DNA of 42,997 nucleotides from a virus (IMGVR_UViG_2563366800_000007); one strand, 5' to 3'; shown: positions 1-42,997, counted from the first letter of the stretch. Numbers and translations: made by a program. Notes: a model not told the origin generated them from the sequence alone.

Positions 1-1194
1 ATGATCACCGACACAAAGCTCAGGAAGGCGCTCGGCAAGAAAAGAGATGATATCGAGATTATTTCTGATTCGCACGGGCTCAACGCCAGAATCAGCCAGG
101 CCGGAAAAATATCATTTTTCTATCGGTATCGCTGGGCCGGTAAAGCGGTAAAACTCAATGTTGGTGATTATCCTGCAATGAGTATCACCCAGGCAAGAGA
201 GCGTCGCCAACAATTCAGAAACTGGTTAACTGAGGGACTGGATCCGCGAGAGCAGGTGAAGCTGGATAAGCAGACCCGACAGGAAGCGATGTCCGTTGCC
301 GAAGCGTTCAATTACTGGATTGAAAGGCACTGTATCGCTAACGGGCTAGTTAAAGTCGATTACTATCGCCAGGTGTTTGAGAAACATATCGCCGAACCGA
401 TGAAGAATGTCAAAGTCGATAACACAGCGAAAATGCACTGGATCAACGTCTTCGATTCTATAGAAAGCAGGGTGATGGCTCATTACATGCTTTCGCTGTG
501 CAAACGGGCGTTTAGGTTCTGCGTTAACAGAAGTGTGATCGCCTCAAACCCACTCGAGGGATTACTGCCATCTGATGTCGGGCAAAAGCCTAAAAAGAGA
601 ACTCGCAGGATGGACGATGACGATCTGCGCAAAATCTATCAGTGGTTGAAAAGCCATATGTCGATAGAGTCCGTTTTCCTGGTGAAATTTATTATGCTTA
701 CCGGATGCCGTACGGCTGAGATTCGACTTAGTGAGAGATCATGGTTTCGATTGGATGATAATGAGTGGGTCGTGCCTGCGGGCAGTTATAAAACTCGGGT
801 ACATATTAGAAGGGGACTCTCAGACGCCGCCGTTAACCTGGTCAGAAATCACCTCAAGAAAATAAACACCAATCACCTGGTGACTTCACAACGTAAAATT
901 GATGGCGGGATCAAAGATTCGCCCGTTCATTCACCTGTGGCATCCAATTACGCCCGTTCTATTTGGAATGGAACAGGTATGGCAGAGTGGTCGCTTCATG
1001 ATATGAGGCGGACGATAGCCACAAATCTCTCTGAGTTAGGTTGCCCGCCGCACGTAATTGAAAAGCTGCTCGGGCATCAGATGGTGGGGGTTATGGCGCA
1101 TTACAACCTTCATGACTATATCGATGATCAGAAACACTGGCTCCGCGTTTGGCAGAGCCATCTTGAAGAGATCATCGGAGAGCCCTTCAGTTAA
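1..1194 (+). CDS. int: Tyrosine-type site-specific integrase (P4-like phage integrase)
   Basis: 397-aa ORF starting at the window edge; C-terminal catalytic region shows integrase-type motifs ([18 protein letters not shown]...HY); an AlpA/Xis-like gene overlaps its stop on the opposite strand. Confidence 0.85.
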
Positions 1195-1433
1195 TTTATC
1201 TTCTTTTTATCCTCCCACTCTTTGATTGACTCAGAGCGCCAGCGGTTAGGGTTGCCGGGCCAGTCAGGGGGTGGGAACGGGCATACGAAGCCCCGAGGCA
1301 TTGTGTCTGCACTTTGCCATGACCAAAGGGTTTTGCGTGAAATTTTGTAGCGACTGGTCAGGTCTGACGTTACCAAAATATCATCCATAGCTCTCTCCAG
1401 TTGCCCGTTCGGGCCATTCAAAATCTTTTTCAA
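1191..1433 (-). CDS. AlpA/Xis-family small DNA-binding protein (putative excisionase or regulator)
   Basis: 80-aa ORF; the core SRKTLWSW...PRGFVCPFP...[11 protein letters not shown] resembles the AlpA-family winged helix (pattern ...TIYDW...W.E.EI.EW); adjacent to int. Confidence 0.65.
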
Positions 1434-1672
1434 CCAACCTGCCCGGGTAGGGAGCGGAGACGGCGCATGCCGGTCATCGCTGTGGCCACGTAGCTCGCCT
1501 TTCGGTTCACCACCTCCACCCAGACTTTCACGCCTTCAACCTTCACCGTATAAGTCTCTTTCATCTTGCTTCGCCCATAGTCGCCATATGTTTGCAAGTG
1601 AGCTGCCAGCGCGATGTCGCATGCTTGGCGAGCTAAAGGTGATTGCTTACTTCCTCGATTGATCAGTCGCAT
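1430..1672 (-). CDS. Hypothetical small phage protein
   Basis: 80-aa ORF with AGGAGA Shine-Dalgarno about 6 nt upstream of the ATG; immediately downstream of recT; no recognisable motifs. Confidence 0.4.
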   Translation of the reverse strand: MRLINRGSKQSPLARQACDIALAAHLQTYGDYGRSKMKETYTVKVEGVKVWVEVVNRKASYVATAMTGMRRLRSLPGQVG

Positions 1673-1710
1673 ATAATCTCCTTGAGGGAGGGTTACCCCT
1701 CCCGGTTTCG

Positions 1711-2829
1711 TCAGGCCACGTATTCCGGTTTCATATCCGCCAGGGTGATGCTGAATTGATCGTGCAGTTCATCGCCTAAGTGACGCTTTGAAGATGCAAG
1801 CATGCGCTCGGCTTCAGCGAACCGTTCGGCTGCATGCGGCTCGTCGGGCTGGGGCAGGGATTTAATAGCCTCCTCAACCTTGTTGCGTGCATCCACTAGG
1901 TAATAACGCTTTACGGCTTTGTTTTTCAGCTCGGTGAATAGTGCGGATCCCAGCGTAGCTTTCGCCGTTTCAATGTCGGCACGCAGCGATTTGGCGCTAT
2001 CCACGTCCTGAGCAGATTCGATGCGTTCGCGGAAATCATCGGCAAGAGAGTCGACATTTACCGACGATTCCTGTGCGCTTTGCGTGGTTGTGACGGTGTC
2101 ACCTGAGATATCAGCCAGGCTAACGCGTTGCGGCGTTGGGTTGATCTCTTTTTCTGTGCGCTGTTCAATCTCATCAGGGGTGTACACACCAAGAACAACT
2201 GCAGGGCAATACAGGCGCGCCCAGTATTTGAGTGCCAGATAAGCGATCTGCTGTTTCGGGTTTGATACCCAAAGTGGAGAATTACGTGTGATTACGCTGG
2301 AGAGGAAAACAGGCTCTCCCCAGGTGATATCACTTTCACCGCGAATAACGGCACCTACCCGTACCGACAGTCCTTGTTCATCAGCACTTTCCCAACCGCG
2401 TACCATTTCTTTCTTGTCGTACGTCCCGCCACCTTTCGCAGGCTTTTTAACGGTTATCTCGCGGCTGCTGGCACATTTCGACCAGTCGCCCTCGTACTCA
2501 TAGTGAAAGCGGCCAACGATGGCGTTTGAGCTGGAGATCACCGCATTAACCAGTTGCGCTTCGTATCCCAGGACACCGTTAACCAGGTGCGTCTTTTGCG
2601 CCACGGCGTAAGGGTTCATACCCCACTGCATCGCCTGCATGATGATGGCCATGCAGTCTGCCGGATTGCCGCGGAGGTGCTCAGGCACCGTTACGGCTGC
2701 CTGTGCCATCAACCCGGCGACAGACTGAAGCTGGGTTAAAGCCTGCACGTTGAAAATGGCATTGCTGGCTGAGATCGTGTTTGGAGTCTGCTGTTCAGCG
2801 GTTACGATATTCGTGTTTTCCATCATCAT
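1711..2829 (-). CDS. recT: RecT/Red-beta family single-strand annealing recombinase
   Basis: 372-aa ORF; segments GMNPYAVAQ...GVLGYEAQ and NSPLWVSNPKQQIAYLALKYWARLY resemble conserved RecT/Bet blocks; sits just downstream of the RecE-like gene, the usual pairing. Confidence 0.75.
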   Translation of the reverse strand: MMMENTNIVTAEQQTPNTISASNAIFNVQALTQLQSVAGLMAQAAVTVPEHLRGNPADCMAIIMQAMQWGMNPYAVAQKTHLVNGVLGYEAQLVNAVISSSNAIVGRFHYEYEGDWSKCASSREITVKKPAKGGGTYDKKEMVRGWESADEQGLSVRVGAVIRGESDITWGEPVFLSSVITRNSPLWVSNPKQQIAYLALKYWARLYCPAVVLGVYTPDEIEQRTEKEINPTPQRVSLADISGDTVTTTQSAQESSVNVDSLADDFRERIESAQDVDSAKSLRADIETAKATLGSALFTELKNKAVKRYYLVDARNKVEEAIKSLPQPDEPHAAERFAEAERMLASSKRHLGDELHDQFSITLADMKPEYVA

Positions 2830-2834
2830 TCCCC

Positions 2835-5800
2835 TTATGCCTGAGTACGCAGCGCTTCAAGGCGGCGCAGGTCGAAGTCGTTCAGTTCGTCGGTGTAGTC
2901 AGCAGTGATTGGCGCTGGCCATTCACCTGTGTCGAATCCGGTTGCGATATTGCGCATCGCTTTGCGGTACTCGAGCATACCCAGCTCCAGTAGTTCAGCG
3001 GATGCCTCGATGATGGCGATCCAGTGGTAGTTCTCGTCTTTGTTGACGAAAATCCAGAAGAACTGATCCAGCGCTGCGGTTTCGCAGTACATAGCCGCGC
3101 TCAGGTGATAATCACGTTCAATAATTTCCCGGTGTAGCCTGGCGCGCAGGCTTTCCTGCTTAACATTCCACATGCTGATGGTTTTCAGGTCTGCACCTAT
3201 ACGCACGCCATCCAGGTCGATCTCAAGGTCAGGGCGCACACGAACTTCCAAGCCCGTCTCCTCGTCAAAACCAAAGTAGCTCACCTCAACGGCTCGGCTA
3301 GGGTGGGTCAGCAGCATGCCGGCGGTCGGGTGTGCCAGAAGCGCTTTTTGAATATTCAGCGCGGTGCTCAGCTGCTGGCGGGTGACCAGCACTTTTCCTT
3401 CCGGGTTATCGCGCCAGGCATCCAGCAGTTCGTCGGCAAATACGGCATCTGGTTTGACTGCCTTCACGGCCTGGATCATGTCTGCTTTGGTACCGGACAC
3501 TTTCAGTGGTGCCGGTTTCTGTGCTTCCTGAGCCACAAGGTCAGGGTTGATGATTGCCAACTGCTCCAGCAGCGCGTCACGGCTGCCGCTGGTTTTAACC
3601 GGCGGCGGCAGGGTGGCGTTGTACTCTTTAATGCATGCCTTCATTGCCGTCGCCGTCTGCTTCTGGTCACCATCAATACGCTGGAAGTCAGCTGGCAGCG
3701 CCATATAGTTCTGTGCCGTTTCTTCCAGGTTAGCGCCAAGCGGAACCTGCGGCGGCAGGGTGGCGTTGTACTCTTCCAGTAACACCTTGATGTCGTCGGC
3801 AGATAGCAGCGCCGGCAGGCTGGCATTGTGCTCATCGATAAAGGCGCGCAGGGTCGCGGCCGTTGTGAATGCGCCTTCAGGGATCACCGGTTCAACGCTG
3901 AATTCTGCGTCCAGTAGTTCAGGCTGCAACGCCAGCGCATGCACCAAGTTGCCCATGTCCAGCACCGCTGAGCGCTCTTTGACGATGGTTTTCTCTACGT
4001 GGCGCGCATTGAAGTACATCAGCGAAACGCGCGCATCTTTCACCTGGGTTGAGCTGATGCCGTTGGCGGCGTGGTAAACCTCGTTTGGCAGCCCTTCATA
4101 GCGGCCTGGCTCGAAATAAGCGGGATAAACAACAGCTGGTTCGTCAGATTGCGCTTCTGGCTCGGTTTGTGCTGCAACTGGTTCGGTTTGGCTTACAGAA
4201 TCGCTATTTTTGGCGACAGAATCCGTATTCTGGTTTACATCGTCCTTCTGGCTGGTATCTGACTCTTCACCAGACTCCAGACTGCTTTCGCCTGGCTGTA
4301 CTTCATCACCAACATTTTTTTCATCACTGACAGTTTCTTCCATCTGCACATTGCTGGTGGTTTCCTCATTAAGTGGTGAACGGTTATCTGTTTGTGTTTG
4401 TTGATCGCCCATCAGGCCATCAATGGAGAATACGCCGTTGCCCATGTTGGCGATTTGTGGCTGTTTAGCAGCTGTTTTCTGCTCTGCAGCGACCTGCTCA
4501 TTAACCTCATTTTCCCAGCTGACGTCCGGCGCATGACCAGCATCAGCCAGCGTTTCTTCTGAGGGGTTTGAGTGGTCATTTTCGGTTAGATTGGCGTTGA
4601 TATATGCCCGCAACCGCCCAGGAAAGTTAACCAATTCTGATGATGTGCCGCGGATGAGTGCAAAGATGGCGGCGCGTGAATAGTCCAGGATGCCAGCGGT
4701 TTTGCGCAGCGCCTCAGACCATTCGCTGAACGGACTTTCTTTCTTGCTGACAATCTCTTTAGCGCGACGGTAGACCCCACCAGGTATGTCGTAGATATTG
4801 AAATCCATTGGCAAGGTGGCCAGCGCAATTTCAACATCCAAAGTGTCCAGTGTGTGGACATAGTCGGTATTACGATCGGTCTTATTTCCACCGCCAGCAT
4901 TGGTTTTGACGTCAGTACGTTGAATCTGCGCAACGCGGTTACCTTTCTGCCATTCCTTGACCAGCAGGCCACGGTCGATGTAATTAGTGTTGAACCACAC
5001 AGTCAGGAACTGGATAACTGTTGCCAGCTCCGGTTTTTTACCGTCGACAGGGAAGACTTTCTTAACAGCATTCACGACTTTATGAATATCGTGCTCAATG
5101 GCTTTTTTGAATGCTTCCACATTCTCAGCAGCCAGCAGCAGGTTCTGGATGTACGTGTCATCAGTGTCCATCTCAAGGCGGACAATCTCGTTTTTCTGCC
5201 CAGCGTCGATGTGATAGAGATATTCACCATCACCGATGAACTGAGCCAGTACGCGCTGACGGAATGGCAGGGTGGCTACGACGATCAGGTTCGGCTGATC
5301 TGGCTGCTGAGATTGTTCTTCGGTACCGACTTCATCACCAACGCTGGTGGTTTCAGTTTTGAGCAGAGGAAACCTGCCACTGCGCCAGTCTTCAACCAGT
5401 TGATTGCGATCACCTGATTCTGCGTTCACCCAGTCAGACATGAAAGCAGCGATCACTTCAGGTCCATGCTCTTCACCCTGTTCGAAGATGTCTTTAATCG
5501 CCTGAATCATTTTCCACTCAGCATTAAGACTGAGTTCGCCAACTTCAGGAACATCATTTTTAACCTGCAGCAAGTTCTGGAGATAGGTATTGCTTTCGTC
5601 CAGTGACATTTCGCTGGCAGCCAGCTGCTGCTCTTTAGTGACGTGAGTCTGGTACTTATCGCTCATCAGATGGAAGGCAAAACGGACTGCTGGAGTGCGG
5701 TTTTCTAACGATACATTCTCGTCAGAAGTCGCTACTTCATCTGTATTTTTTACATCGGCAGGGATAGTGGTGACAACGTCGCCAGCGGCCTTTGGCAGCC

Positions 5801-6170
5801 AGGTGCGCCCGTCGTCCTGCAGTTCGTAACGATCACACCAGGTGAAATCAACTTCACCTTCTTCCGGCAGGTCGTCATATATCGGGAAATCGGTGCGGAT
5901 TGGTTTGGCATAATCTTTACCGCGGCCAGTTTCTTCAATTCCGGCTTCTTCCAGTGCCACATCGAGTTGGAGATTGGCGCGCGCTACACTTTTCGCAGTG
6001 AACCAAATCACGGCATCTTTCTTGCCAGACTTCTGACTGGCTTTTATCAGATGGAAAAATTCCATGTGAGATCCTCTTTTTTGAGTGTTAGAATCCCCGG
6101 GCCAGAGATAGCGCCCATTGGATGTTTTTTGGTTTGGTATAAATTCCGGTGTAACTTTGGTCGGTGGCAC
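2835..6170 (-). CDS. recE: RecE-like exodeoxyribonuclease VIII (long N-terminal region plus C-terminal PD-(D/E)xK nuclease domain)
   Basis: 1111-aa ORF; C-terminal RPDLEIDLDGVRIGADLKT fits a PD-(D/E)xK active site; partner of RecT; internal repeated EYNATLPP motif. Confidence 0.7.
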   Translation of the reverse strand: MPPTKVTPEFIPNQKTSNGRYLWPGDSNTQKRGSHMEFFHLIKASQKSGKKDAVIWFTAKSVARANLQLDVALEEAGIEETGRGKDYAKPIRTDFPIYDDLPEEGEVDFTWCDRYELQDDGRTWLPKAAGDVVTTIPADVKNTDEVATSDENVSLENRTPAVRFAFHLMSDKYQTHVTKEQQLAASEMSLDESNTYLQNLLQVKNDVPEVGELSLNAEWKMIQAIKDIFEQGEEHGPEVIAAFMSDWVNAESGDRNQLVEDWRSGRFPLLKTETTSVGDEVGTEEQSQQPDQPNLIVVATLPFRQRVLAQFIGDGEYLYHIDAGQKNEIVRLEMDTDDTYIQNLLLAAENVEAFKKAIEHDIHKVVNAVKKVFPVDGKKPELATVIQFLTVWFNTNYIDRGLLVKEWQKGNRVAQIQRTDVKTNAGGGNKTDRNTDYVHTLDTLDVEIALATLPMDFNIYDIPGGVYRRAKEIVSKKESPFSEWSEALRKTAGILDYSRAAIFALIRGTSSELVNFPGRLRAYINANLTENDHSNPSEETLADAGHAPDVSWENEVNEQVAAEQKTAAKQPQIANMGNGVFSIDGLMGDQQTQTDNRSPLNEETTSNVQMEETVSDEKNVGDEVQPGESSLESGEESDTSQKDDVNQNTDSVAKNSDSVSQTEPVAAQTEPEAQSDEPAVVYPAYFEPGRYEGLPNEVYHAANGISSTQVKDARVSLMYFNARHVEKTIVKERSAVLDMGNLVHALALQPELLDAEFSVEPVIPEGAFTTAATLRAFIDEHNASLPALLSADDIKVLLEEYNATLPPQVPLGANLEETAQNYMALPADFQRIDGDQKQTATAMKACIKEYNATLPPPVKTSGSRDALLEQLAIINPDLVAQEAQKPAPLKVSGTKADMIQAVKAVKPDAVFADELLDAWRDNPEGKVLVTRQQLSTALNIQKALLAHPTAGMLLTHPSRAVEVSYFGFDEETGLEVRVRPDLEIDLDGVRIGADLKTISMWNVKQESLRARLHREIIERDYHLSAAMYCETAALDQFFWIFVNKDENYHWIAIIEASAELLELGMLEYRKAMRNIATGFDTGEWPAPITADYTDELNDFDLRRLEALRTQA

Positions 6171-6203
6171 CGGACGTGAATCCCGCCTTGCGCGGGGTTT
6201 TCG

Positions 6204-6365
6204 TTATGCTTCGTGGGCCATCTGGTCGAACGAAGCGCAACGTACTGAACAGTAATCACGTTGCTCGCGTTTCAACTGCGTGCCGTGGATAAAGAGCAGT
6301 TCGTTTTTAACTTCCTTCCCTTGCTTGATCGGCTTGCGGCAGTACGCGCATTTTTTCTCCTGCAT
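6204..6365 (-). CDS. Small Cys4 zinc-ribbon protein (YdaE-like by position)
   Basis: 53-aa ORF below the 60-aa track cutoff, translated by hand: MQEKKCAYCRKPIKQGKEVKNELLFIHGTQLKREQRDYCSVRCASFDQMAHEA; two Cys pairs (CxxC ... CxxxC); lies between the KilR-like ORF and recE as in Rac-type prophages. Confidence 0.45.
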   Translation of the reverse strand: MQEKKCAYCRKPIKQGKEVKNELLFIHGTQLKREQRDYCSVRCASFDQMAHEA

Positions 6366-6376
6366 AACTCACTCCG

Positions 6377-6583
6377 TTAATGGCTAAGGCCATGTCCTAA
6401 ACCGTTTAGATAAACCTCAACCAGCAAATCTTTGGTGTAGGTACGTTCGATGCCACGGTGAAGATACAGGCGACCGCGTGCGTTAGCAGATGCGGTCCAG
6501 GTTGAGTCTTTGTGTTTTACAAGCATCCCCGGCTGAACTGCGCCGCGGTTTACTGTCTGTGTACCGTAGTGCTGATGAACCAT
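6377..6583 (-). CDS. KilR-like small protein (assigned by synteny); a longer 116-aa reading to 6727 is possible
   Basis: Internal ATG at 6583 is preceded by GGAGAA about 7 nt upstream and gives a 68-aa product (MVHQHYG...EVYLNGLGHGLSH); function inferred only from position relative to recET in Rac-like prophages. Confidence 0.35.
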   Translation of the reverse strand: MVHQHYGTQTVNRGAVQPGMLVKHKDSTWTASANARGRLYLHRGIERTYTKDLLVEVYLNGLGHGLSH

Positions 6584-6938
6584 GATGTTCTCCACTATTG
6601 CTGAGTGAACTTCGCTGGTGGTGCCGTGACGCTGATCTTCACAGTTGAGCGTTTTAACTCTGCAATTCACCACCGCGAAGCTCACTTCTGTGTTTGCCCT
6701 TGTCGCCAGGCTGGCGGAACGTTTCAAACCTACTGCGCGTTAATATCACCACCTCATTCCGGTTTTCGTATGCCCCGGACGGCTACTTCGTGGGCTCCAT
6801 GCCTGGGTGGTTCGTGGTGCGTCTTGGTGAGTTAGATTAAATCACTGGTTTATATATATGTCAACTTAAGGTTAGTGTTAATTGTAAATCTGAGGTTTAT
6901 GTGGCTGGGTTTTGTGACACGTCTGCAGAATCGCAGGC

Positions 6939-34935: not shown

Positions 34936-36339
34936 ATGCCGTCAATTATCCAGGACGCAATAACTTCTCTTTTGGGGGGAGATACCAGCGATGACTGGCA
35001 GGGGCAGTTACGGCCCAGCTCATTCAGAGGTGTGCCATTTGCAATTGTTGCTGAGGAAGGGAGCCACGGCCGACGCCAGGCGGTACATGAATATCCCTAC
35101 CGTGATACAGCCTGGATAGAGGATATCGGGCGGGCAACACGGCGATTTGTTATTCGCGGTTTCTTGATCCAGAACAGCCAGGTTTACGGCGGCGGCGATG
35201 CTATCACGCAGCGCCAGTCACTGATTGAAGCCTGTGAACAAAAAGGTAGCGGTACGCTTGTCCATCCGACACTGGGCGAATTAACGGTTTCCATCCCTGA
35301 GAATGGTTTGCGTATTTCCGGTTCGATGGAGAACGGGCGAGTATTTGAATTTACCCTGATGGCAATTGAATCAGGGCTTAAAGTGTTTGCTGTCACGGGC
35401 AGTACCGTTGCAGGCGCCACGGTGAAAACCAACTATCTGAAACTGGTCAGCACTGCTGTGCTGAGCACGATTGCCAGAGTTAAGAGTGAAATCCGCGGTG
35501 TCACGCAGGCTATAAACACCATCAGAGGCACGGTCACGTTCTGGACTAACATGGTTGACAGCACCATCAGTCAGGTCACGAATCTCAGCAATGTCCTGAA
35601 CTCCACGTTCGGGAATACCCGGTACGGACGTTACAGTAAAGGCTCTGTGGGCGGTAGTTCCTCTGCTGTTGCTGGCAAATCGTCAGTTGCTGATGTGGAT
35701 GATGAGAGAGCACTGGCTGACAAGGTAACAGCCCAGTCGGTAATGGACCGGAAAAATGTTACCGACAGGTCGAGCCAGCTTAGCAGCTCCAACACACCTG
35801 ATGAGTTTGTCCAGGGCGTCGCCGACGTGGTAAACGCAATTCTTAACAGCGCCGGCAGCGTTAATGACCGAATCACAGCGCTGGAAAAACTGGCTAATTC
35901 AATCAGCACGGAGTACCAGCAGTCCGACAGCAGCAAAGCGATTTCGGCGACCATGAACACGCTGATTGTTGTGCTATGTACTGGTGCCATGACCAGTGCC
36001 GCTGCGGACTCCAGACCAGCCAGTACAGACGAGGCAGAAGAGTTAACTCAACGAGTTTCTGTGCAACTTGATACGGCGCTGGTTCTGGCTGGAGACCGCG
36101 CAGACGATGATATGTATAACGCGCTTCTCGCCGTCAGATCGGCATTCCTTTCTACGATGAGTGAGCGTGCTTCTGGTCTGAGCGAGCTTCTGCAGGTTAC
36201 TACCGCTCAGCCGCTTCCGGCGCTGACGCTGGCAAACCGATTATACCAGGATGCCACCCGTGCAGATGAACTGGTACAGGAAGCGCGCGTACCGCATCCG
36301 GCGTTTATGCCGACAACCATGAAGGTACTGAGGCAATGA
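34936..36339 (+). CDS. DNA circularisation protein (Mu gpN-like)
   Basis: N-terminal SFRGVPFAIV...GRRQAVHEYPYRD...EDIGRATRRF parallels Mu N (SFRGVPFHVV...GRRYQLHEYPGRD...EDLGRKARRF). Track ORF begins with GTG at 34933. Confidence 0.75.
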   Translation: MPSIIQDAITSLLGGDTSDDWQGQLRPSSFRGVPFAIVAEEGSHGRRQAVHEYPYRDTAWIEDIGRATRRFVIRGFLIQNSQVYGGGDAITQRQSLIEACEQKGSGTLVHPTLGELTVSIPENGLRISGSMENGRVFEFTLMAIESGLKVFAVTGSTVAGATVKTNYLKLVSTAVLSTIARVKSEIRGVTQAINTIRGTVTFWTNMVDSTISQVTNLSNVLNSTFGNTRYGRYSKGSVGGSSSAVAGKSSVADVDDERALADKVTAQSVMDRKNVTDRSSQLSSSNTPDEFVQGVADVVNAILNSAGSVNDRITALEKLANSISTEYQQSDSSKAISATMNTLIVVLCTGAMTSAAADSRPASTDEAEELTQRVSVQLDTALVLAGDRADDDMYNALLAVRSAFLSTMSERASGLSELLQVTTAQPLPALTLANRLYQDATRADELVQEARVPHPAFMPTTMKVLRQ

Positions 36340-37421
36340 ATGCAGACAGCGATCTGGATGTTGTTTCTTTGACGGTCGACGGCAAAATCATCGAGGGGTG
36401 GGATTCTGTCCGGGTAACGCGGGGTATTGAGCGTTTTCCCTCTGATTTCGATCTTGGGCTAATGGATTACTTCCCTGGCAACGAAGATCGTCAACTCGTT
36501 GAAGAGGGAATGTCTTGTGAAGTTCGTATCGGAGATGATCTGACACTGACGGGATATGTTGATGACTGGGAACCCGCACTATCGCGCTCCCGCCATGAGG
36601 TCCGCGCCACGGGCAGGAGCAAATGTCAGGACCTGGTGGATTGCTCAGCCGAGTGGCCTAACAACGTCATCAATGCCAGTAATGCGCTTGAAATTGCTTC
36701 TCGCCTGGCATCCTACTACGGCATCACCGTAACCACGGATGTTGATGAACTTGTGAAGGTACCCCAGTTCACTCTGAACTGGGGTGAGTCTCCGCAAGAA
36801 GTCATCGATCGGGTGGCCAGATGGTCTGCTCTGCTTTACTACGATCAGCCCGATGGAAACCTGTTACTGACCTGGGTGGGAACACGTCGTGCGGCAAGTG
36901 GGATAGCCGAAGGGGTAAATGTCGAGCAGGCATACTACCGCAAATCGATGGCTGACAGGTTTTCAGATTATGTCGGTGTATCAATGAGCGTTTCTCCAAT
37001 TGCAGGGTATTCGCCTGATACGGCCTATGACGCTGTGACTCTGGCAACGGCGAGAGATCCGGAGGCCGCCCGCATGCGGTACCGAAAACATATATCGATT
37101 GTGGAAAGTACCCTGATGGCTACTCAACAGGCACAAAGTGCGATCGACTGGGAAATGAACCGGCGGTACGGACGTTCAAAACAGCTCTCGGTAACCATCG
37201 ATTCCTGGCGGGATAAAGACGGGAAACTGTGGGAACCAAACACATTGATCCCCGTTGATCTTCCCACCTTACGGTTGCCGAAGACTGAATTGCTACTGGC
37301 AGAAGTCACCTATATGCGCGATGACTACGGCACCCATGCACGCATGACGCTGATGCCGCCTGAAGCATTCTCCGTTCAGCCATATGCCTTCTACCAGAAC
37401 CTGGCGGGATTCAATACATGA
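36336..37421 (+). CDS. Baseplate hub or tail protein (Mu gpP / late control D-like)
   Basis: 361-aa ORF following the N-like gene, as in Mu; ATGA overlap with the upstream stop. Confidence 0.6.
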   Translation: MNADSDLDVVSLTVDGKIIEGWDSVRVTRGIERFPSDFDLGLMDYFPGNEDRQLVEEGMSCEVRIGDDLTLTGYVDDWEPALSRSRHEVRATGRSKCQDLVDCSAEWPNNVINASNALEIASRLASYYGITVTTDVDELVKVPQFTLNWGESPQEVIDRVARWSALLYYDQPDGNLLLTWVGTRRAASGIAEGVNVEQAYYRKSMADRFSDYVGVSMSVSPIAGYSPDTAYDAVTLATARDPEAARMRYRKHISIVESTLMATQQAQSAIDWEMNRRYGRSKQLSVTIDSWRDKDGKLWEPNTLIPVDLPTLRLPKTELLLAEVTYMRDDYGTHARMTLMPPEAFSVQPYAFYQNLAGFNT

Positions 37422-38002
37422 AGCAACTATTTAAACATGCAGCGACCAGGATCGCCGGCATGCTGGGGATTGGCCGGATCACGGCTATGAAAGATGGTGG
37501 GGTGGTGCAGTCTATCCAGTACCAGACTCCGCTGGAGGTGGCCAGCGCTCCGCGGATGGCAGAATTTGGCTTTTCATCCGGCCTGCCGTCAGGGACTGAC
37601 GTGGTTCTGGCTTTTATTGGCGGTGATCGTTCCAGCGCGGTGGTAATTGCGTCCAACCATCAGGGGTTCCGTCATACAGGCCTGAAAGCGGGCGAAACGG
37701 TCATGTATAACCAGTGGGGCCTTAATATTCTCCTGACGGAGAAGGGGATCTTCCTGGATGCAAAGGGCCAGAATGTTGAGGTCAATAACGCCACTAACGT
37801 GACCATCAATGCCAGCCAGGGGATCCTTGCAAATACCCCGATCCTGAGGTGCACGGGTGACATTGTTGATAACTGTGAAACCAATACCCGAACACTGAAA
37901 GAGCTGCGGGATGCACATAATGACCATGATCATGTGGTTAAAAATGCCCAGAGTGGCAATGACAATATCCGCAGCCAAAAAACAGAGGATCAGGTGACAT
38001 GA
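37418..38002 (+). CDS. Baseplate assembly protein V-like (spike)
   Basis: 194-aa ORF in the Mu-like order between the hub and gp46-like genes. Confidence 0.6.
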   Translation: MKQLFKHAATRIAGMLGIGRITAMKDGGVVQSIQYQTPLEVASAPRMAEFGFSSGLPSGTDVVLAFIGGDRSSAVVIASNHQGFRHTGLKAGETVMYNQWGLNILLTEKGIFLDAKGQNVEVNNATNVTINASQGILANTPILRCTGDIVDNCETNTRTLKELRDAHNDHDHVVKNAQSGNDNIRSQKTEDQVT

Positions 38003-38436
38003 GTGACATCGCTTCATTCTGGAATGTGGATGAGATGTTTGCTGACTGGCAGAAAGGGCTGGGTGAACTCACCACGGGGAACGATTTACAGACTGCAATA
38101 CTGGACAGCCTGTTTACCGACAGGCTGGCGCGCGCTGACGATGATTATGAGGATAGCGATCGCCGCGGCTGGTGGGGGGATTCCGGGGAGGAATCCCAAC
38201 TGGGATCCCGGCTGTGGCTGCTACGGCGGAAAAAACTGACCCCGGATGTAGCAAAAAAAGCGGAGGAATACTCGAGTGAAGCGCTCAACTGGTTAAAGGT
38301 TGATGGCGTTGTCAGCGAGGTTATTCCTGTTGCAAGGATCGTCCTGCCTGACCGGCTCAATCTCATTATCCGCTATCAGGCACCGGGGAAGGACTGGCAG
38401 GAATTCAGGTTTTACTGGATATGGGAGCAACGTTAA
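37999..38436 (+). CDS. Baseplate protein (Mu gp46-like)
   Basis: 145-aa ORF immediately before the baseplate J-like gene. Confidence 0.6.
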   Translation: MSDIASFWNVDEMFADWQKGLGELTTGNDLQTAILDSLFTDRLARADDDYEDSDRRGWWGDSGEESQLGSRLWLLRRKKLTPDVAKKAEEYSSEALNWLKVDGVVSEVIPVARIVLPDRLNLIIRYQAPGKDWQEFRFYWIWEQR

Positions 38437-38437
38437 T

Positions 38438-39580
38438 ATGCCGTTTAAACGACCGACGCTGAGCGAACTCCGCGACGGAAACCGGAAATTTATGCAGGCG
38501 GAGCTTGAGGATGTTGGTGCGCTCCTGCGCTTCGCGAACCTGAAGGTACTGGCTGACATGGATGCGGGGATGGGGCATCTGCATTACGCCTACCTTGACT
38601 ATATTGCCCTGCAGACAAACCCGTTTACCTCTACCGATGAGTATCTCGCCGGGTGGATGGCCCTTAAGCAGGTATTCAGAAAACCAGCTGCAGCGGCGAA
38701 GTCGCCTGCGGTACAGGCTAGTGGCAGTGTTGACTGTATTATCCCTGTTGGCTCGATCATTAACCGCGGGGACGGATACCAGTACCGGACGGATGCAGAT
38801 CTTAAAATTCAGGCAGATGGATTTGGTATCGTCGCGGTGACGGCCATACTGCCGGATATTACCAGTGATGTAACGGGTGGAGGCGCGCGCGGTAACGCTG
38901 ATGCCGGGACCATAATGACCCTGGACGCGAATATTGCTGGCGTGGATCCACAGGTAACGTTACTGTCCGCTGCGACCGGCGGAGCCGATATTGAAACGGA
39001 AGAGGATTTTCGCAGTCGTGGCTTGCTGGCATGGCAGAATCCGCCTCAGGGTGGAAGCGACGCCGATTATAAAAAATGGGCGCTTGAGGTTTCGGGCGTC
39101 ACCCGCGCGTGGGTAAAGCGGCGTCTGAACGGGGCCGGGACCGTTGGCGTGTATATCATGTGTGATCGGAATGACAATGGTGGGTTTCCGGTCGGTACCG
39201 ACGGAATATCCCAACTTGAGGACTGGGGGGCTGTTAAAGCCACCGGAGACCAGCTCGCTGTCGCCGACCACATCTATCCGCAGCAGACAGACACTGCCAT
39301 TGTTTTCGTATGTTCCCCGATCAAGAAAGTCATCAATATTGAAATCTCTGGGATCAAAAATGCCGACAGCACCACAGTTCAGGGGATAAAAGACGCGCTG
39401 ACGGCGCTGTTTTTTGATGAAGCTAACCCTGATGGTTCCGGGAAAGTTTACCTCTCTGATATTAACGGGAGTATCGGCGGTGTTAGCGGCACGACGGGCT
39501 ATATTCTTAACTCTCCGACGGCCAATATCACCTTTGCTGTTGGCGAAATTCCGGTGCTTGGCGGGGTGAATTTTGTATGA
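38438..39580 (+). CDS. Baseplate J-like protein (Mu gp47-like)
   Basis: 380-aa product from the ATG at 38438; order and size as in Mu-like baseplates. Track ORF begins at 38300. Confidence 0.7.
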   Translation: MPFKRPTLSELRDGNRKFMQAELEDVGALLRFANLKVLADMDAGMGHLHYAYLDYIALQTNPFTSTDEYLAGWMALKQVFRKPAAAAKSPAVQASGSVDCIIPVGSIINRGDGYQYRTDADLKIQADGFGIVAVTAILPDITSDVTGGGARGNADAGTIMTLDANIAGVDPQVTLLSAATGGADIETEEDFRSRGLLAWQNPPQGGSDADYKKWALEVSGVTRAWVKRRLNGAGTVGVYIMCDRNDNGGFPVGTDGISQLEDWGAVKATGDQLAVADHIYPQQTDTAIVFVCSPIKKVINIEISGIKNADSTTVQGIKDALTALFFDEANPDGSGKVYLSDINGSIGGVSGTTGYILNSPTANITFAVGEIPVLGGVNFV

Positions 39581-40170
39581 GCCTCTTTTCAAAAAATGAT
39601 TATGCCGGTGCGCTTGGTGCGCTGCTACCGACGGGCAGGGCGTGGCCCCGGTCGCAAAGAACGGTACAGGCTGCGGTATTACGGGCACTGGGCAGCGCGT
39701 TTCAGCGTTCTGACAACGATGCGCAAAGCCTGATTACTGGTGCTTTTCCCCCTACAGCGACGGTAATGTTGTCAGAATGGGAAAGCTCTCTGGGGTTACC
39801 AGATGATTGTGCGATTGGTGAATCCGGTGGCGTCAGCGATCGCCAGCGCGCCGTGGTGGCAAAGTTAATCAGCACCGGCGGCCTGAACCGCGATTATTAC
39901 ATCCGGGTGGCTGCAGCTCTTGGTTATACCATCACTATCACACAGTTCCGGCCCGCTATGAGTGGCATGTCAGTATGCGGTGATGCGCTTAACGGTGACG
40001 AGTGGCCATTTACCTGGCGGATAAATGCGCCACAAACAACGATCAAGTATTCGCTTGCTGGCGCGTCCTACTGCGGAGATCCGCTCGCATCGTGGGGCAA
40101 TAAACAACTGGAGTGTTCAATCAACAAAATTGCCCCATCCCATCTGAACATCATTTTCAATTATTCATAA
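39577..40170 (+). CDS. Tail protein (Mu gp48-like)
   Basis: 197-aa ORF between the baseplate J-like and tail-fibre genes. Confidence 0.55.
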   Translation: MSLFSKNDYAGALGALLPTGRAWPRSQRTVQAAVLRALGSAFQRSDNDAQSLITGAFPPTATVMLSEWESSLGLPDDCAIGESGGVSDRQRAVVAKLISTGGLNRDYYIRVAAALGYTITITQFRPAMSGMSVCGDALNGDEWPFTWRINAPQTTIKYSLAGASYCGDPLASWGNKQLECSINKIAPSHLNIIFNYS

Positions 40171-40221
40171 CTGATATTTCCCCCTCTGATTTTATCGCTT
40201 AACACTAAGTGAGGATTAACT

Positions 40222-40863
40222 ATGCTCCGAATCGGGCAAGTCGAAGCCACTGCAACGCAGGATGGCAAATATACTGATGGAAGTGTTGCTGGTGGTATTG
40301 CCGCAACGAGGCTGCGGGCAGCAGCGTTTAATGCCATGCAGGAAGAGTTAGCGCATATCGTAGAGTCAGCAGGATTGGCGCTCGACATTAACGATATGAC
40401 TCAGGTTTTAAAAGCCATTCAAAAACTCACACTGAGCCGTGCAAACCCATTTGCCGATATCAAATCAGATGGTGCAGCGGCGATTTCTACGGCTCTCACA
40501 AACCTTGGTTTGGGAGAAGCGGCGAAAAGGGATGTGGGCACAGGAGATAATCAGATACCGGATATGGGAGCATTCGCTTCTGGTTCGGGATGGTTCAGGC
40601 TACCAGGTGGATATATTGTTCAGTTTGGCACTTTTGCAGGAAACACGACCCGCTTTATCAGTGGACACTTCCCTATACCATTCCCTAATCAGCCGATGGT
40701 TTCAGTCAGTGTTATGTCTGATGCCGTTCAGTCAGACCCGTCGATTCCTGCCCCGCAGGTTTTGTCTGTAAATTTTGAACATATCAGTAATTCAGCGTGG
40801 CGTGTGGCAACCAGTGATATCTCACAGCAATACAGATTCAGTTATATTTCGATAGGACGGTAG
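40222..40863 (+). CDS. Tail fibre protein (constant N-terminal part plus variable C-terminal part in the current orientation)
   Basis: 213 aa; a gix-like crossover site lies inside the gene at codons 92 to 100 (LTNLGLGEA); followed by a tail-fibre assembly gene. Confidence 0.7.
   Translation: MLRIGQVEATATQDGKYTDGSVAGGIAATRLRAAAFNAMQEELAHIVESAGLALDINDMTQVLKAIQKLTLSRANPFADIKSDGAAAISTALTNLGLGEAAKRDVGTGDNQIPDMGAFASGSGWFRLPGGYIVQFGTFAGNTTRFISGHFPIPFPNQPMVSVSVMSDAVQSDPSIPAPQVLSVNFEHISNSAWRVATSDISQQYRFSYISIGR
40494..40519. other. gix/hix-like recombination site inside the tail fibre gene
   Basis: TCTCACAAACC TT GGTTTGGGAGAAG, an imperfect dyad around a central TT; 14 bp identical to the inverted partner. 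Confidence 0.6.
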
Positions 40864-40865
40864 AA

Positions 40866-41306
40866 ATGCAGAAATATATTTTCAGTGCCGATAAAAATGC
40901 GTTTTTCCCTGTGGAGCTTAAAATCGCTTATCAGGAATCCGGCGAATGGCCCGATGATGGAATCGAAATTGACGACACTGTTGCTGCCGAATTTATGAAG
41001 GAAGCACCAGAAGGAAAATACAGAGGTGTCATCGACGGAATGCCTGCATGGATTGATATTCCACCGCCAACTCATGAGGAACAAATTGCCGCAGCCGAAC
41101 TGAAAAAGCAGCAATTGATTAATCAGGTCAACGAATACATAAACAGTAAGCAATGGCCTGGTAAAGCGGCGATTGGTCGCCTGAAAGGTGAGGAACTGGT
41201 GCAATATAATTTGTGGCTGGATTATCTGGACGCACTGGAACTGGTCGATACTTCCGGTGCGCCAGATATTGAATGGCCTACGCCTCCGGCAGTTCAGGCC
41301 AGATGA
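40866..41306 (+). CDS. Tail fibre assembly protein (for the current fibre variant)
   Basis: 146-aa ORF immediately after the fibre gene; the C-terminal LVDTSGAPDIEWPTPP mirrors the C-terminus of the opposite-strand paralog (DTSTAPDVIWPELP). Confidence 0.7.
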   Translation: MQKYIFSADKNAFFPVELKIAYQESGEWPDDGIEIDDTVAAEFMKEAPEGKYRGVIDGMPAWIDIPPPTHEEQIAAAELKKQQLINQVNEYINSKQWPGKAAIGRLKGEELVQYNLWLDYLDALELVDTSGAPDIEWPTPPAVQAR

Positions 41307-41880
41307 CATCAGGCGCGGTGCTGGTATCTGTTGCCTCCACCGCGTCAATGTAATCCAGCACAGCGTTAAGTCGGGTGGTTTCTGCCTGCGTCAGCTTCCG
41401 CCCGGCCCGTAATTTCATCTGAATCAGACTGATGGAAGCCATTGCAGCATCAATCAGCGACTGGCGCTTTGCTTCTGCCGCGTCTAGTGCGGCGCTATGC
41501 TGTGCCTCGGTATCCGTCACCCATTTCTCACCATCCCATTTATCGAATGGCGTTAACGGGGCGATAGTGGTTGTATTTTCAGGGTAATCACCCAGAGCTG
41601 TGATTTCTTTCGATTCTCCTGTTTCGGTGCTATAGATGATTTCACCGCGATGGTCTGGTACATATTCCCATGAGTTAAAATCTGCAGAACGGCAGATTGT
41701 ATAACCAGCTTTATGTGTAACTGGTGCATCTAAACAAGAACATGCCGGGATACCGACGCCAACCGCAAGATATTCAGTTGATGTGGAAATATATTCCCGC
41801 GTTTCGCCATCATAGTTATGTACGATGATTTCCCCATCATTTAAAGCGTAACCGTCTTTTCCCAAAATAGCCTGTTCCAT
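41278..41880 (-). CDS. Alternative tail fibre assembly protein (inverted orientation)
   Basis: 200-aa minus-strand ORF converging on the plus-strand assembly gene; shared C-terminal motif. Confidence 0.7.
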   Translation of the reverse strand: MEQAILGKDGYALNDGEIIVHNYDGETREYISTSTEYLAVGVGIPACSCLDAPVTHKAGYTICRSADFNSWEYVPDHRGEIIYSTETGESKEITALGDYPENTTTIAPLTPFDKWDGEKWVTDTEAQHSAALDAAEAKRQSLIDAAMASISLIQMKLRAGRKLTQAETTRLNAVLDYIDAVEATDTSTAPDVIWPELPEA

Positions 41881-42396
41881 TTATGCAGCCCTCACAATGT
41901 AGTTAAATGCAATGTTTCGCGGGCTACCATCACCGGCGCCGGAACTGACATGATTTGTTCTATCCATTCGTTTACTGTCATTTGTTGTTCCACTCCCATC
42001 CTTCCACGAATACAATAACCCGCCATCGCCAATGCTCAACTGCACCGCAAATACGGATGAAACGGATGAATAAACATCACTAGCCATGAGTGGGTTCCCG
42101 GTCCATCCATGCATTTCATGGTTATGTTCAAGGATAGATGCCGCCTGACTTGAAAGTAGCAGTCTCGCGGAATCAACACCTCGCCCATCATCCCACCCGC
42201 GAATAAACTCACCGCGCAAATCCGGTAATTTTAACTTTGGGTAAGCCTTTGCCAGTTTTGGGTACTCTTCGGCAGAAAAAGGTGCACCGTTGCATTTCAG
42301 CCAGCCTGTTGGTGGTGTGGCTGAAGGCCACGGAACAGGCACACCAACGGGTAACGCTGAGCCTTCTCCCAAACCAACCTTTTTTATAACCATCAA
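41881..42396 (-). CDS. Alternative tail-fibre C-terminal variable segment (expressed after inversion)
   Basis: Minus-strand ORF whose codons 7 to 11 (VGLGE) share the 14-bp crossover sequence with the plus-strand fibre gene, in frame; collar-type C-terminal domain (PLGEGSALPVG ... LPDLRGEFIRGW ... NIAFNYIVRA). Confidence 0.65.
   Translation of the reverse strand: MMVIKKVGLGEGSALPVGVPVPWPSATPPTGWLKCNGAPFSAEEYPKLAKAYPKLKLPDLRGEFIRGWDDGRGVDSARLLLSSQAASILEHNHEMHGWTGNPLMASDVYSSVSSVFAVQLSIGDGGLLYSWKDGSGTTNDSKRMDRTNHVSSGAGDGSPRNIAFNYIVRAA
42364..42389. other. gix/hix-like recombination site next to the invertase gene
   Basis: TTCTCCCAAACCAACCTTTTTTATAA; matches the recalled hix consensus (TTCTTGAAAACCAAGGTTTTTGATAA) at about 20 of 26 positions and is inverted relative to the first site. 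Confidence 0.6.
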
Positions 42397-42448
42397 AAAT
42401 CTGGTGATGCTTCGCCGTTTCTCCTGTTTTCATAACAGGAGAAATCCC

Positions 42449-42997
42449 ATGATTTACGGTTATGCCCGAGTATCAACAAACCACCAGGACACTGAATTGC
42501 AACTAACGGCGCTCAAGTCAGCGGGTTGTGAGAAAATTTTTGAAGAGCATGCCAGCGGGAGGAAATCGAATCGGCCGGTTCTAAAACGGCTCATCGCCAC
42601 TATGCAGCCGGGGGATGAACTGGTGGTCTGGAAGCTGGACAGGATAGGCCGCAACGTTCTGCATGCGCTGTTGATGTTCCAGCAGTTACAGGAAAAGGGT
42701 ATCAACTTCCGCAGTATTACCGATGGCGTGGATCTCAAAACAGCCAGCGGCCGCTATAACTTTCGTAACATCCTTTCCGCAGCACAATATGAATCTGATC
42801 TTAATAGCGAACGTACCTTAGCAGGGCTGGCCGTAGCCAGGGCAAAAGGGCGAGTTGGTGGTCGCAGGCCTAAGTTCACGGATGAGCAATGGCGGGAAAT
42901 GGGGGAGCGGATGGCAACCGGTGAATCACGACAAAGCGTATCAAAAACGTATGGAGTAGGGCTCTCAACTCTGTATAAAAAGTTTCCAGCTAGCTGA
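42449..42997 (+). CDS. Serine DNA invertase (Gin/Hin/Pin family)
   Basis: MIYGYARVSTNHQDTELQ...VVWKLDRIGR and a C-terminal HTH (GESRQSVSKTYGVGLSTLYK) are diagnostic; AGGAGA ribosome-binding site. Track ORF begins at 42290. Confidence 0.9.
   Translation: MIYGYARVSTNHQDTELQLTALKSAGCEKIFEEHASGRKSNRPVLKRLIATMQPGDELVVWKLDRIGRNVLHALLMFQQLQEKGINFRSITDGVDLKTASGRYNFRNILSAAQYESDLNSERTLAGLAVARAKGRVGGRRPKFTDEQWREMGERMATGESRQSVSKTYGVGLSTLYKKFPAS

Follow-up and report, generated by a model that had tools for sequence, protein, structure and literature searches.

Does a tail-fibre locus that carries two alternative fibre ends and a recombinase gene of its own constitute an inversion switch, and, if so, is the recombinase controlled in the manner of the classical DNA invertases? 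This question was raised by the viral DNA IMGVR_UViG_2563366800_000007 (42,997 nucleotides; hereafter the window, meaning the whole stretch that was analysed), in which a fibre gene, two assembly genes, a second fibre segment on the opposite strand and an invertase gene lie side by side at the right end. We put the probability at about 0.88 that the locus is a pix-type inversion switch, resembling the P segment of prophage e14, which exchanges a fibre tip together with its chaperone and forms the right-hand end of an E. coli prophage that is complete and adjoins yciI. The switch itself is an ordinary, textbook one; its added value is a divergent and apparently Fis-uncoupled lineage of invertases.

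Recombination sites and orientation of the fibre segment

Two 26-bp sites were found in inverted orientation, each composed of 12-bp half-sites around a 2-bp core, TT/AA. The left, pixL-like site (40493-40518; CTCTCACAAACC TT GGTTTGGGAGAA, with the crossover dinucleotide at 40505-40506) is located within the plus-strand fibre gene, at codons L-T-N-L-G-L-G-E, and the right, pixR-like site (42364-42389; TTCTCCCAAACC AA CCTTTTTTATAA, crossover dinucleotide at 42376-42377) is located at the 5' end of a minus-strand open reading frame (ORF) that begins M-V-I-K-K-V-G-L-G-E. The bases common to both sites, 14 bp as the initial annotation had described for its pair of gix-like sites, are the 2-bp core and the whole of the 12-bp inner half-site. 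One additional shared base extends them to an exact inverted 15-mer (40505-40519 and 42363-42377), of which the 43-kb window contains two exact copies, namely the two sites; by our own estimate, an inverted 15-mer would be expected by chance about 0.006 times in 3.5 kb. No third site with two or fewer mismatches to AAACCNNGGTTT was observed in 36000-42997, and the locus is therefore a simple two-state switch. A shufflon-like system of multiple inversions was ruled out, as only two sites are present within 36-43 kb.

The segment between the two cores (40505-42377, 1873 bp core to core) was found inverted in E. coli PCP06171, where this prophage occupies the same chromosomal position. The inverted segment was 99.73% identical to that of the window, and the flanks were 100% identical (38000-40519 and 42363-42997, with 0 mismatches over 2520 + 635 nt). 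Inversion of the window in silico reduced the mismatches against PCP06171 from 1426 to 5, and the breakpoints were confined to the shared 15-mer, which holds the central dinucleotide. Since the same prophage is seen in one state in the window and in the other in PCP06171, both orientations of the segment occur in nature, and the breakpoints lie within the common core. The initial annotation had named the observation of one orientation only, together with an inactive invertase, as an argument against a switch, and this argument falls with the exact inversion at the sites in PCP06171.

The inversion in silico also yielded an in-frame fusion of 259 amino acids (aa), made of the constant fibre N-terminus and a collar-type C-terminus, and this 259-aa form is annotated in PCP06171. 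The proposal that the reading frames match across the sites was thus borne out. The reciprocal product predicted for the flipped state, a 124-aa chimera of MVIKKVGLGE and the gp53-like C-terminus, was found as an exact copy on 15 public contigs. When 5426 complete E. coli genomes were examined, the junction of the constant part with the gp53-like part, which is the window state, was detected in 1 genome, and the junction of the constant part with the collar part in 15. Among 80 prophage loci from IMG/VR that carry this invertase lineage, the TfaE-like cassette was silent in 11 and expressed in 13, and an inverted partner site was present 1.2-3.0 kb upstream in 52 of the 80 (median 1.86 kb). 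Strain 1368KP was considered as another clean flipped copy and was rejected, because its flanks were the same but its cassettes were only 87-89% identical. Inversions of tail-fibre genes are a recognised and enriched class (PMC9881135).

The fibre gene (40222-40863, plus strand) encodes a protein with a Gp53-like_C domain. Its constant N-terminal part, 94 codons up to the crossover (40222-40504, plus strand), is presumed to attach to the baseplate; it matches tail-fibre PHROGs and the N-termini of Mu S and e14 StfP, and it was 100% identical among strains with different cassettes. In the window, the gp53-like C-terminus A (40519-40863, plus strand; Pfam Gp53-like_C, E=1.4e-8) is fused to the constant part and is thus in the expressed state, and the resulting 213-aa fibre protein has an exact copy in public data. 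The collar-type C-terminus B (41881-42393, minus strand; Pfam Collar, E=5e-15), which is 51% identical to e14 StfE and also has an exact counterpart among public proteins, occupies the silent position. As the initial annotation had suggested, each variable end has an assembly gene of its own, and one Caudo_TAP gene was found per cassette: a TfaP-like gene (56% identity) in cassette A (40866-41306, plus strand; Pfam Caudo_TAP, E=9e-34) and a TfaE-like gene (86% identity) in cassette B (41278-41880, minus strand; Pfam Caudo_TAP, E=1.4e-32). The two assembly genes are convergent, with an overlap of 29 nt. The silent cassette reads as a 170-aa ORF, MVIKKVGLGE..., owing to an ATG (42393) that comes from the outer half of the right site, so that the silent-side ORF is complete in both states, with either 170 or 124 aa. 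NCBIfam gave no specific family name for any protein of the locus.

A 24-nt inverted repeat, 79% complementary, is common to both assembly genes (41216-41239 and 41336-41359) and encodes their conserved C-terminal motif, LDYLDALE or LDYIDAVE. It is possible that this repeat serves as a substrate for homologous exchange within the segment.

We propose that the small serine recombinase would bind both 26-bp sites and cut each at the central TT/AA dinucleotide, and that rotation of the subunits would then invert the 1873-bp segment. Inversion would set one of the two cassettes behind the constant 94-codon N-terminus, giving either the window state, with the gp53-like C-terminus and its assembly gene, or a second state with the collar-type C-terminus and the TfaE-like assembly gene. 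Virions formed after induction would carry one of two receptor-binding tips. The inversion is presumably performed by the adjacent invertase, and the two tips presumably bind different receptors.

The sites also mark the limits of homology with other phages. Homology to many unrelated phages, including P2-like Klebsiella phages and HK97, starts and stops within a few bases of the two sites, and in 80 related loci conservation shifts at the core of the right site, the outer side being conserved and the inner side variable. The sites therefore also bound cassette exchange, and they delimit very extensive shuffling of cassettes among P2-like, Mu-like and lambdoid phages. Between the window and PCP06171, 5 single-nucleotide polymorphisms (SNPs) were located in the 1873-bp segment and 0 in the 3155 bp of flanks; the probability that all five fall inside the segment is about 0.007, which points to a faster turnover or recombination of the cassettes than of the remaining prophage.

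The closest characterised system is the P segment of e14 with its invertase PinE, rather than the G segment of Mu with Gin. The gene order in e14 of strain K-12, ymfQ-stfP-tfaP-tfaE-stfE-pinE, is identical here, including the upstream baseplate gene of the Mu gp48/YmfQ type; the fibres are similarly short (about 210 aa), and in each system the two assembly genes converge with a 29-nt overlap. The left site is identical to e14 pixL at 24 of 26 bases, and e14 has the 15-bp core TTGGTTTGGGAGAAG as well as the TT/AA crossover in common with the window. The e14 sites read CTCTCGAAAACCTTGGTTTGGGAGAA and TTCTCCCAAACCAACGTTTATGAAAA, and the published e14 inverted repeat TTGGTTTGGGAGAAGG, which was experimentally shown to invert, contains the 15-mer of the window (PMC12529663). 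The segment measures 1797 bp in e14 and 1873 bp in the window, and in addition to the identities given above, the StfP N-terminus is 47% and PinE 55% identical to its counterpart. In contrast to the window prophage, which is complete and adjoins yciI near a phi80-type attachment site, e14 is a defective remnant at icd.

The Mu G/Gin system, like the P1 C/Cin system, also has a constant N-terminus and two inverted cassettes of C-terminus and chaperone (S/U and S'/U'). Further likenesses to Mu are the 26-bp sites with AAACC..GGTTT half-site cores and an invertase gene about 70 bp outside the right site. However, the AAACC..GGTTT core is all that the gix sites share with those of the window, while the core dinucleotide and the flanking sequence differ, and the Mu fibres (504 aa) and G segment (3 kb) are larger. 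The initial annotation had read the locus as Mu G-segment biology and had suggested an alignment with gix; the logic of the switch and the AAACC..GGTTT core held up, but the rest of the gix sequence did not, e14 pix being nearer, and the prophage is not Mu-like overall.

A divergent invertase lineage and its regulation

The invertase gene (42449-42997, plus strand) encodes 182 aa with the catalytic domain and C-terminal helix-turn-helix of small serine recombinases (Pfam Resolvase, E=3.6e-39; HTH_7, E=1.5e-9). The catalytic residues R7, S9, D64, R65 and R68 are intact and align with those of Gin, Pin and Cin; at least 118 of the 119 representatives of the lineage share them. The best match among solved structures is Gin, with 52% identity and no gaps over 181 aa (E=1e-56). 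Strong purifying selection acts on the invertase: the 30-aa helix-E block and the catalytic residues do not vary, against a synonymous-site variation of about 0.5-0.6.

The identity of the window enzyme to PinE, Gin and Cin is only 51-55%; among these three it is 77-83%. Relatives in other genera were 62-88% identical to the window enzyme and 44-52% identical to the classical enzymes. Clustering at 50% placed the full-length members of the lineage in one cluster, and the next full-length relatives were at most 53% identical. The lineage occurs in E. coli, Citrobacter, Klebsiella, Enterobacter, Salmonella, Serratia, Morganella and related genera. Our literature search on this invertase, on phage mEp237, whose invertase is 100% identical to that of the window, and on natural Fis-independent invertases returned nothing relevant among the papers searched. 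The initial assignment to the Gin/Pin family thus stood for fold and chemistry, Ser9 being intact, but not for regulatory class, as the enzyme belongs to a separate clade without the Fis/enhancer hallmarks described below.

What defines the Hin/Gin/Cin/Pin paradigm in regulatory terms is control by Fis and an enhancer, which, to our knowledge, has so far been bypassed by laboratory mutants only. Gin is Fis/enhancer-dependent, and both of its Fis sites are located in the 5' coding region, an arrangement that gin, cin and pin all keep and that the window gene does not share. Scored over seven positions against the Fis consensus KNNYRNNWNNYRNNM, pin, gin, cin and the Pin-like gene of a related prophage (L022, see below) matched 7/7 at gene nt 23 and at nt 71, 48 bp apart, and the lineage genes reached 5-6/7 at the first of these positions and 3-6/7 at the second. 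In the window, the canonical proximal position (gene nt 23-37; 42471-42485, plus strand) is degenerate, with 6/7 of the consensus, and the canonical distal position (gene nt 71-85; 42519-42533, plus strand) lacks both boundary bases, G and C, and is free of synonymous constraint. The distal -7 boundary G was replaced by C in 12 of 12 lineage sequences.

The profile of synonymous variation gave a corresponding picture. Nine classical genes showed two dips, at codons 5-16 (relative rate 0.38-0.52) and at codons 25-36 (0.61-0.68), with normal variation between the two, whereas 14 lineage genes showed the first dip only, codons 5-16 being at 0.53-0.59 and codons 25-36 at 0.97-0.98. No second dip was observed anywhere in codons 1-140 of the lineage genes, and no conserved second Fis-like site was found in them 48 bp from the proximal one. 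The enhancer that the initial annotation had proposed to look for in the invertase gene was thus not recovered as two Fis sites 48 bp apart, in a test of sequence pattern only.

The protein also departs from the classical enzymes at the positions that contact Fis. Hin residues Q151, R154 and L155 have been described as uniquely conserved in Fis-dependent invertases (PMC3798978). Their equivalents in the window enzyme are E150, E153 and R154, and these positions vary freely within the lineage. Of the basic helix-B residues (Hin 47, 48 and 51), K46 and R47 are kept, and position 50, equivalent to Hin 51, is A, T, G, D or S but never K or R. In helix E, the lineage has YNFR..I..A..Y where the classical enzymes have FFFH..M..L..M; both this motif and the high mutual identity of the Fis-dependent invertases are absent. 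The helix-E block SGRYNFRNILSAAQYESDLNSERT was invariant in the 14 lineage genes compared across genera, and the key residues Y103, N104, R106, I108 and Y114 were present in 118 of 119 lineage representatives. At positions 103-106, 150 representatives of the family mostly have two hydrophobic residues, F, and then H or N; YNFR occurs in the lineage alone.

Several of these residues fall at positions where mutations release classical invertases from Fis. The F105N variant of Hin inverts faster and independently of Fis (PMC4513852). Fis-independent mutants of Hin (F105N/L/I/M, and H107Y, an activating mutation) and of Gin (M114V, the crystallised variant) are altered at the same positions as the wild-type lineage, in which N104, R106 and Y114 correspond to Hin F105, Hin H107 and Gin M114, respectively. 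The hyperactive mutants are laboratory variants of classical enzymes, several of them DNA-damaging, whereas the lineage residues are natural and invariant, and their effect is proposed by analogy.

Upstream of the invertase, two tandem hairpins were predicted on the plus strand. Hairpin 1 (42403-42416) has a 5-bp stem and a variable loop and is terminator-like, with a T-rich run after it; its stem is preserved through a C/T change opposite G. Hairpin 2 (42417-42445) has a 12-bp stem, the 3' arm of which holds the Shine-Dalgarno (SD) sequence AGGAGA (42437-42442). The 76-nt leader with both hairpins (42395-42470) had a folding energy of -25.5 kcal/mol (z=-4.6), and 0 of 200 shuffled sequences were as stable. 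The hairpins recur in most of the roughly 87 lineage loci, where a single compensatory change from a T-A to a C-G pair was seen, and both are absent from pinE and gin, so that pinE has no SD-hiding leader hairpin, unlike the window invertase. The hairpins, we reasonably infer, would keep translation of the invertase very low. A scan from the right site to the invertase ATG gave no convincing promoter, the matches being at chance level. In most of the 80 lineage loci, the invertase and the right site remain linked with a constant spacing. In a sub-branch with 86% identity (L076 and L081-L083, from IMG/VR), the two-hairpin leader is missing, and another stem, TTCACC...GGTGAA, about 50 nt upstream of the ATG, overlaps the presumed ribosome-binding site.

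The lineage, by these comparisons, is without three hallmarks that PinE has: the canonical distal Fis site with its constraint, the Fis-contact residues, and the FFFH motif of helix E. Regulation of this recombinase probably differs from that of the classical invertases. We see even odds that the clade is without the canonical Fis/enhancer activation of Hin/Gin/Cin/Pin and that its activity is limited mainly by low expression through the SD-hiding leader hairpin. A wider proposal, to which we give slightly less than even odds, is that a widespread enterobacterial clade gave up Fis/enhancer activation, that its helix E would make the enzyme constitutively competent for synapsis, as in the hyperactive laboratory mutants of Hin and Gin, and that safety would be provided by very low expression through the SD-hiding leader hairpin, with action on the pix-type sites of classical Pin retained.

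The lineage invertase of Pseudocitrobacter vendiensis (L010; locus 4001-4558) carries a Pin-like C-terminal DNA-binding domain with Q/R/L retained, and its right site is degenerate (AATTGAAC). Recombination of catalytic and DNA-binding domains between the two invertase clades seems to occur.

Prophage setting and related loci

The window is the whole prophage, from a tyrosine integrase (1-1194) to the invertase, the stop codon of which ends at the last base. The gene content includes RecT/RecE, a lambda-type terminase, portal, capsid and a tail sheath; the tail is contractile, and the baseplate is of the Mu type (gp44-48 homologues). A transposable prophage of the Mu type was ruled out by the tyrosine integrase, RecET and the lambda-type terminase, portal and capsid. 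The same prophage was found adjoining yciI-tonB in three E. coli chromosomes, and the record of phage mEp237 annotates the attachment site beside the identical invertase as phi80-like.

Phage mEp237 itself (L006, JQ182730.1; locus 4367-5049) is a lambdoid siphovirus with the identical invertase and the right site; it retains a 63-bp relic of the gp53-like cassette and no left site. The mEp237 locus is an orphan invertase module beside a prophage attachment site.

Another related prophage, in an E. coli strain from mussel (L022, NZ_CM174221.1; locus 1-6626), has baseplate and constant fibre genes that are 99% identical to those of the window. Its invertase is classical and Pin-like, with FFFH, the Q/R/L patch and both Fis sites at 7/7, and it is 76-88% identical to PinE, Gin and Cin and 55.6% identical to the window enzyme. 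The integration site also differs (tRNA-Pro/yejM), and homology with the window breaks at the right recombination site.

Alternative explanations and significance

Several points weigh against our reading of the locus and of its invertase. The evidence for the activity of the adjacent enzyme comes from sequence. The sites are nearly identical to those of e14, which both PinE and PinQ invert, and inversion in trans is conceivable. In an all-against-all comparison of 82 lineage loci, window/PCP06171 was the only near-identical flipped pair, with one further partial pair, because the cassettes are too diverse. The classical Fis-site positions, which we take to be gene nt 23 and nt 71, rest on indirect checks: four classical genes show the consensus with the 48-bp spacing, the synonymous profile of nine classical genes agrees, and the proximal site has been published as lying about 100 bp from hixL. 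Fis binds degenerate sequences; since it tolerates degeneracy and the proximal position retains 6/7 under a synonymous dip, a non-canonical enhancer is conceivable.

That the lineage is still dependent on Fis through such a non-canonical or relocated enhancer, and is simply a divergent member of the Hin/Gin/Cin/Pin group, is the strongest of the alternatives, although we hold it to be somewhat less likely than not to be correct. The 6/7 proximal site, the reduced synonymous variation in codons 5-16, the retention of K46 and R47 in helix B, the Pin-like DNA-binding domain with Q/R/L in the P. vendiensis member, and the hosts, all Enterobacterales, which possess Fis, are consistent with it. It is opposed by the missing second site 48 bp away and second dip, by the free variation of the Fis-contact positions, and by N104, which corresponds to the Fis-independent Hin F105N. 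A different doubt concerns which enzyme acts: the segment could be inverted in trans by another resident recombinase, such as PinE, PinQ/PinR or a classical Pin-like enzyme, the adjacent invertase being inactive or irrelevant. The core of the e14 pix sites is shared, the e14 P segment is inverted by PinE and even by PinQ, at an identity of only 38% (PMC12529663), in L022 a classical Pin-like invertase accompanies the same constant fibre, and PCP06171 has 4 places that match this module; but the purifying selection on the adjacent gene, with its invariant catalytic residues and 30-aa helix-E block, and its constant spacing from the right site in most of the 80 loci, 52 of which have a partner site, make this explanation unlikely.

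Similarly unlikely is that the relevant output is a phenotype of the lysogen, in which the silent-side ORF would be expressed and would block adsorption of other phages, as e14 StfE2 blocks that of T2 (PMC12529663). The in-frame ATG at 42393 opens complete ORFs of 170 or 124 aa, both of which occur as exact proteins in public annotation, and a weak leftward promoter-like match is present at 42476-42449. However, no convincing SD sequence was found before this ATG, promoter matches were at chance level (6 found, 4.2 expected), and, because the window is a complete prophage with head, tail and baseplate, unlike e14, virion host range is the simpler output, although the two roles are not mutually exclusive. 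We consider it very improbable that the locus is a frozen relic, in which the orientation differences reflect rare ancient events or replacement of cassettes by homologous recombination. Cassettes are indeed highly mosaic among prophages with an identical invertase, the 5 SNPs in the segment against 0 in the flanks would fit replacement, and some loci, such as mEp237, have degenerate sites or none; yet the window has two intact sites whose 15-bp core is perfect, the breakpoints coincide exactly with this core and the flanks on either side are 100% identical, cassette orientation is about 1:1 across the lineage, and a repeat of 15 bp falls short of the length that RecA needs for efficient inversion. 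None of these four explanations alters the basic reading of the locus as a pix-type inversion switch.

For the prophage, the switch means an ability to release virions with either receptor-binding tip. If the proposed loss of Fis control is true, a natural, widespread Fis-free clade that acts on the same sites would provide a ready comparison for how tetramer formation and subunit rotation are gated in serine invertases, and it may serve synthetic biology as a compact inversion tool that is independent of host factors.

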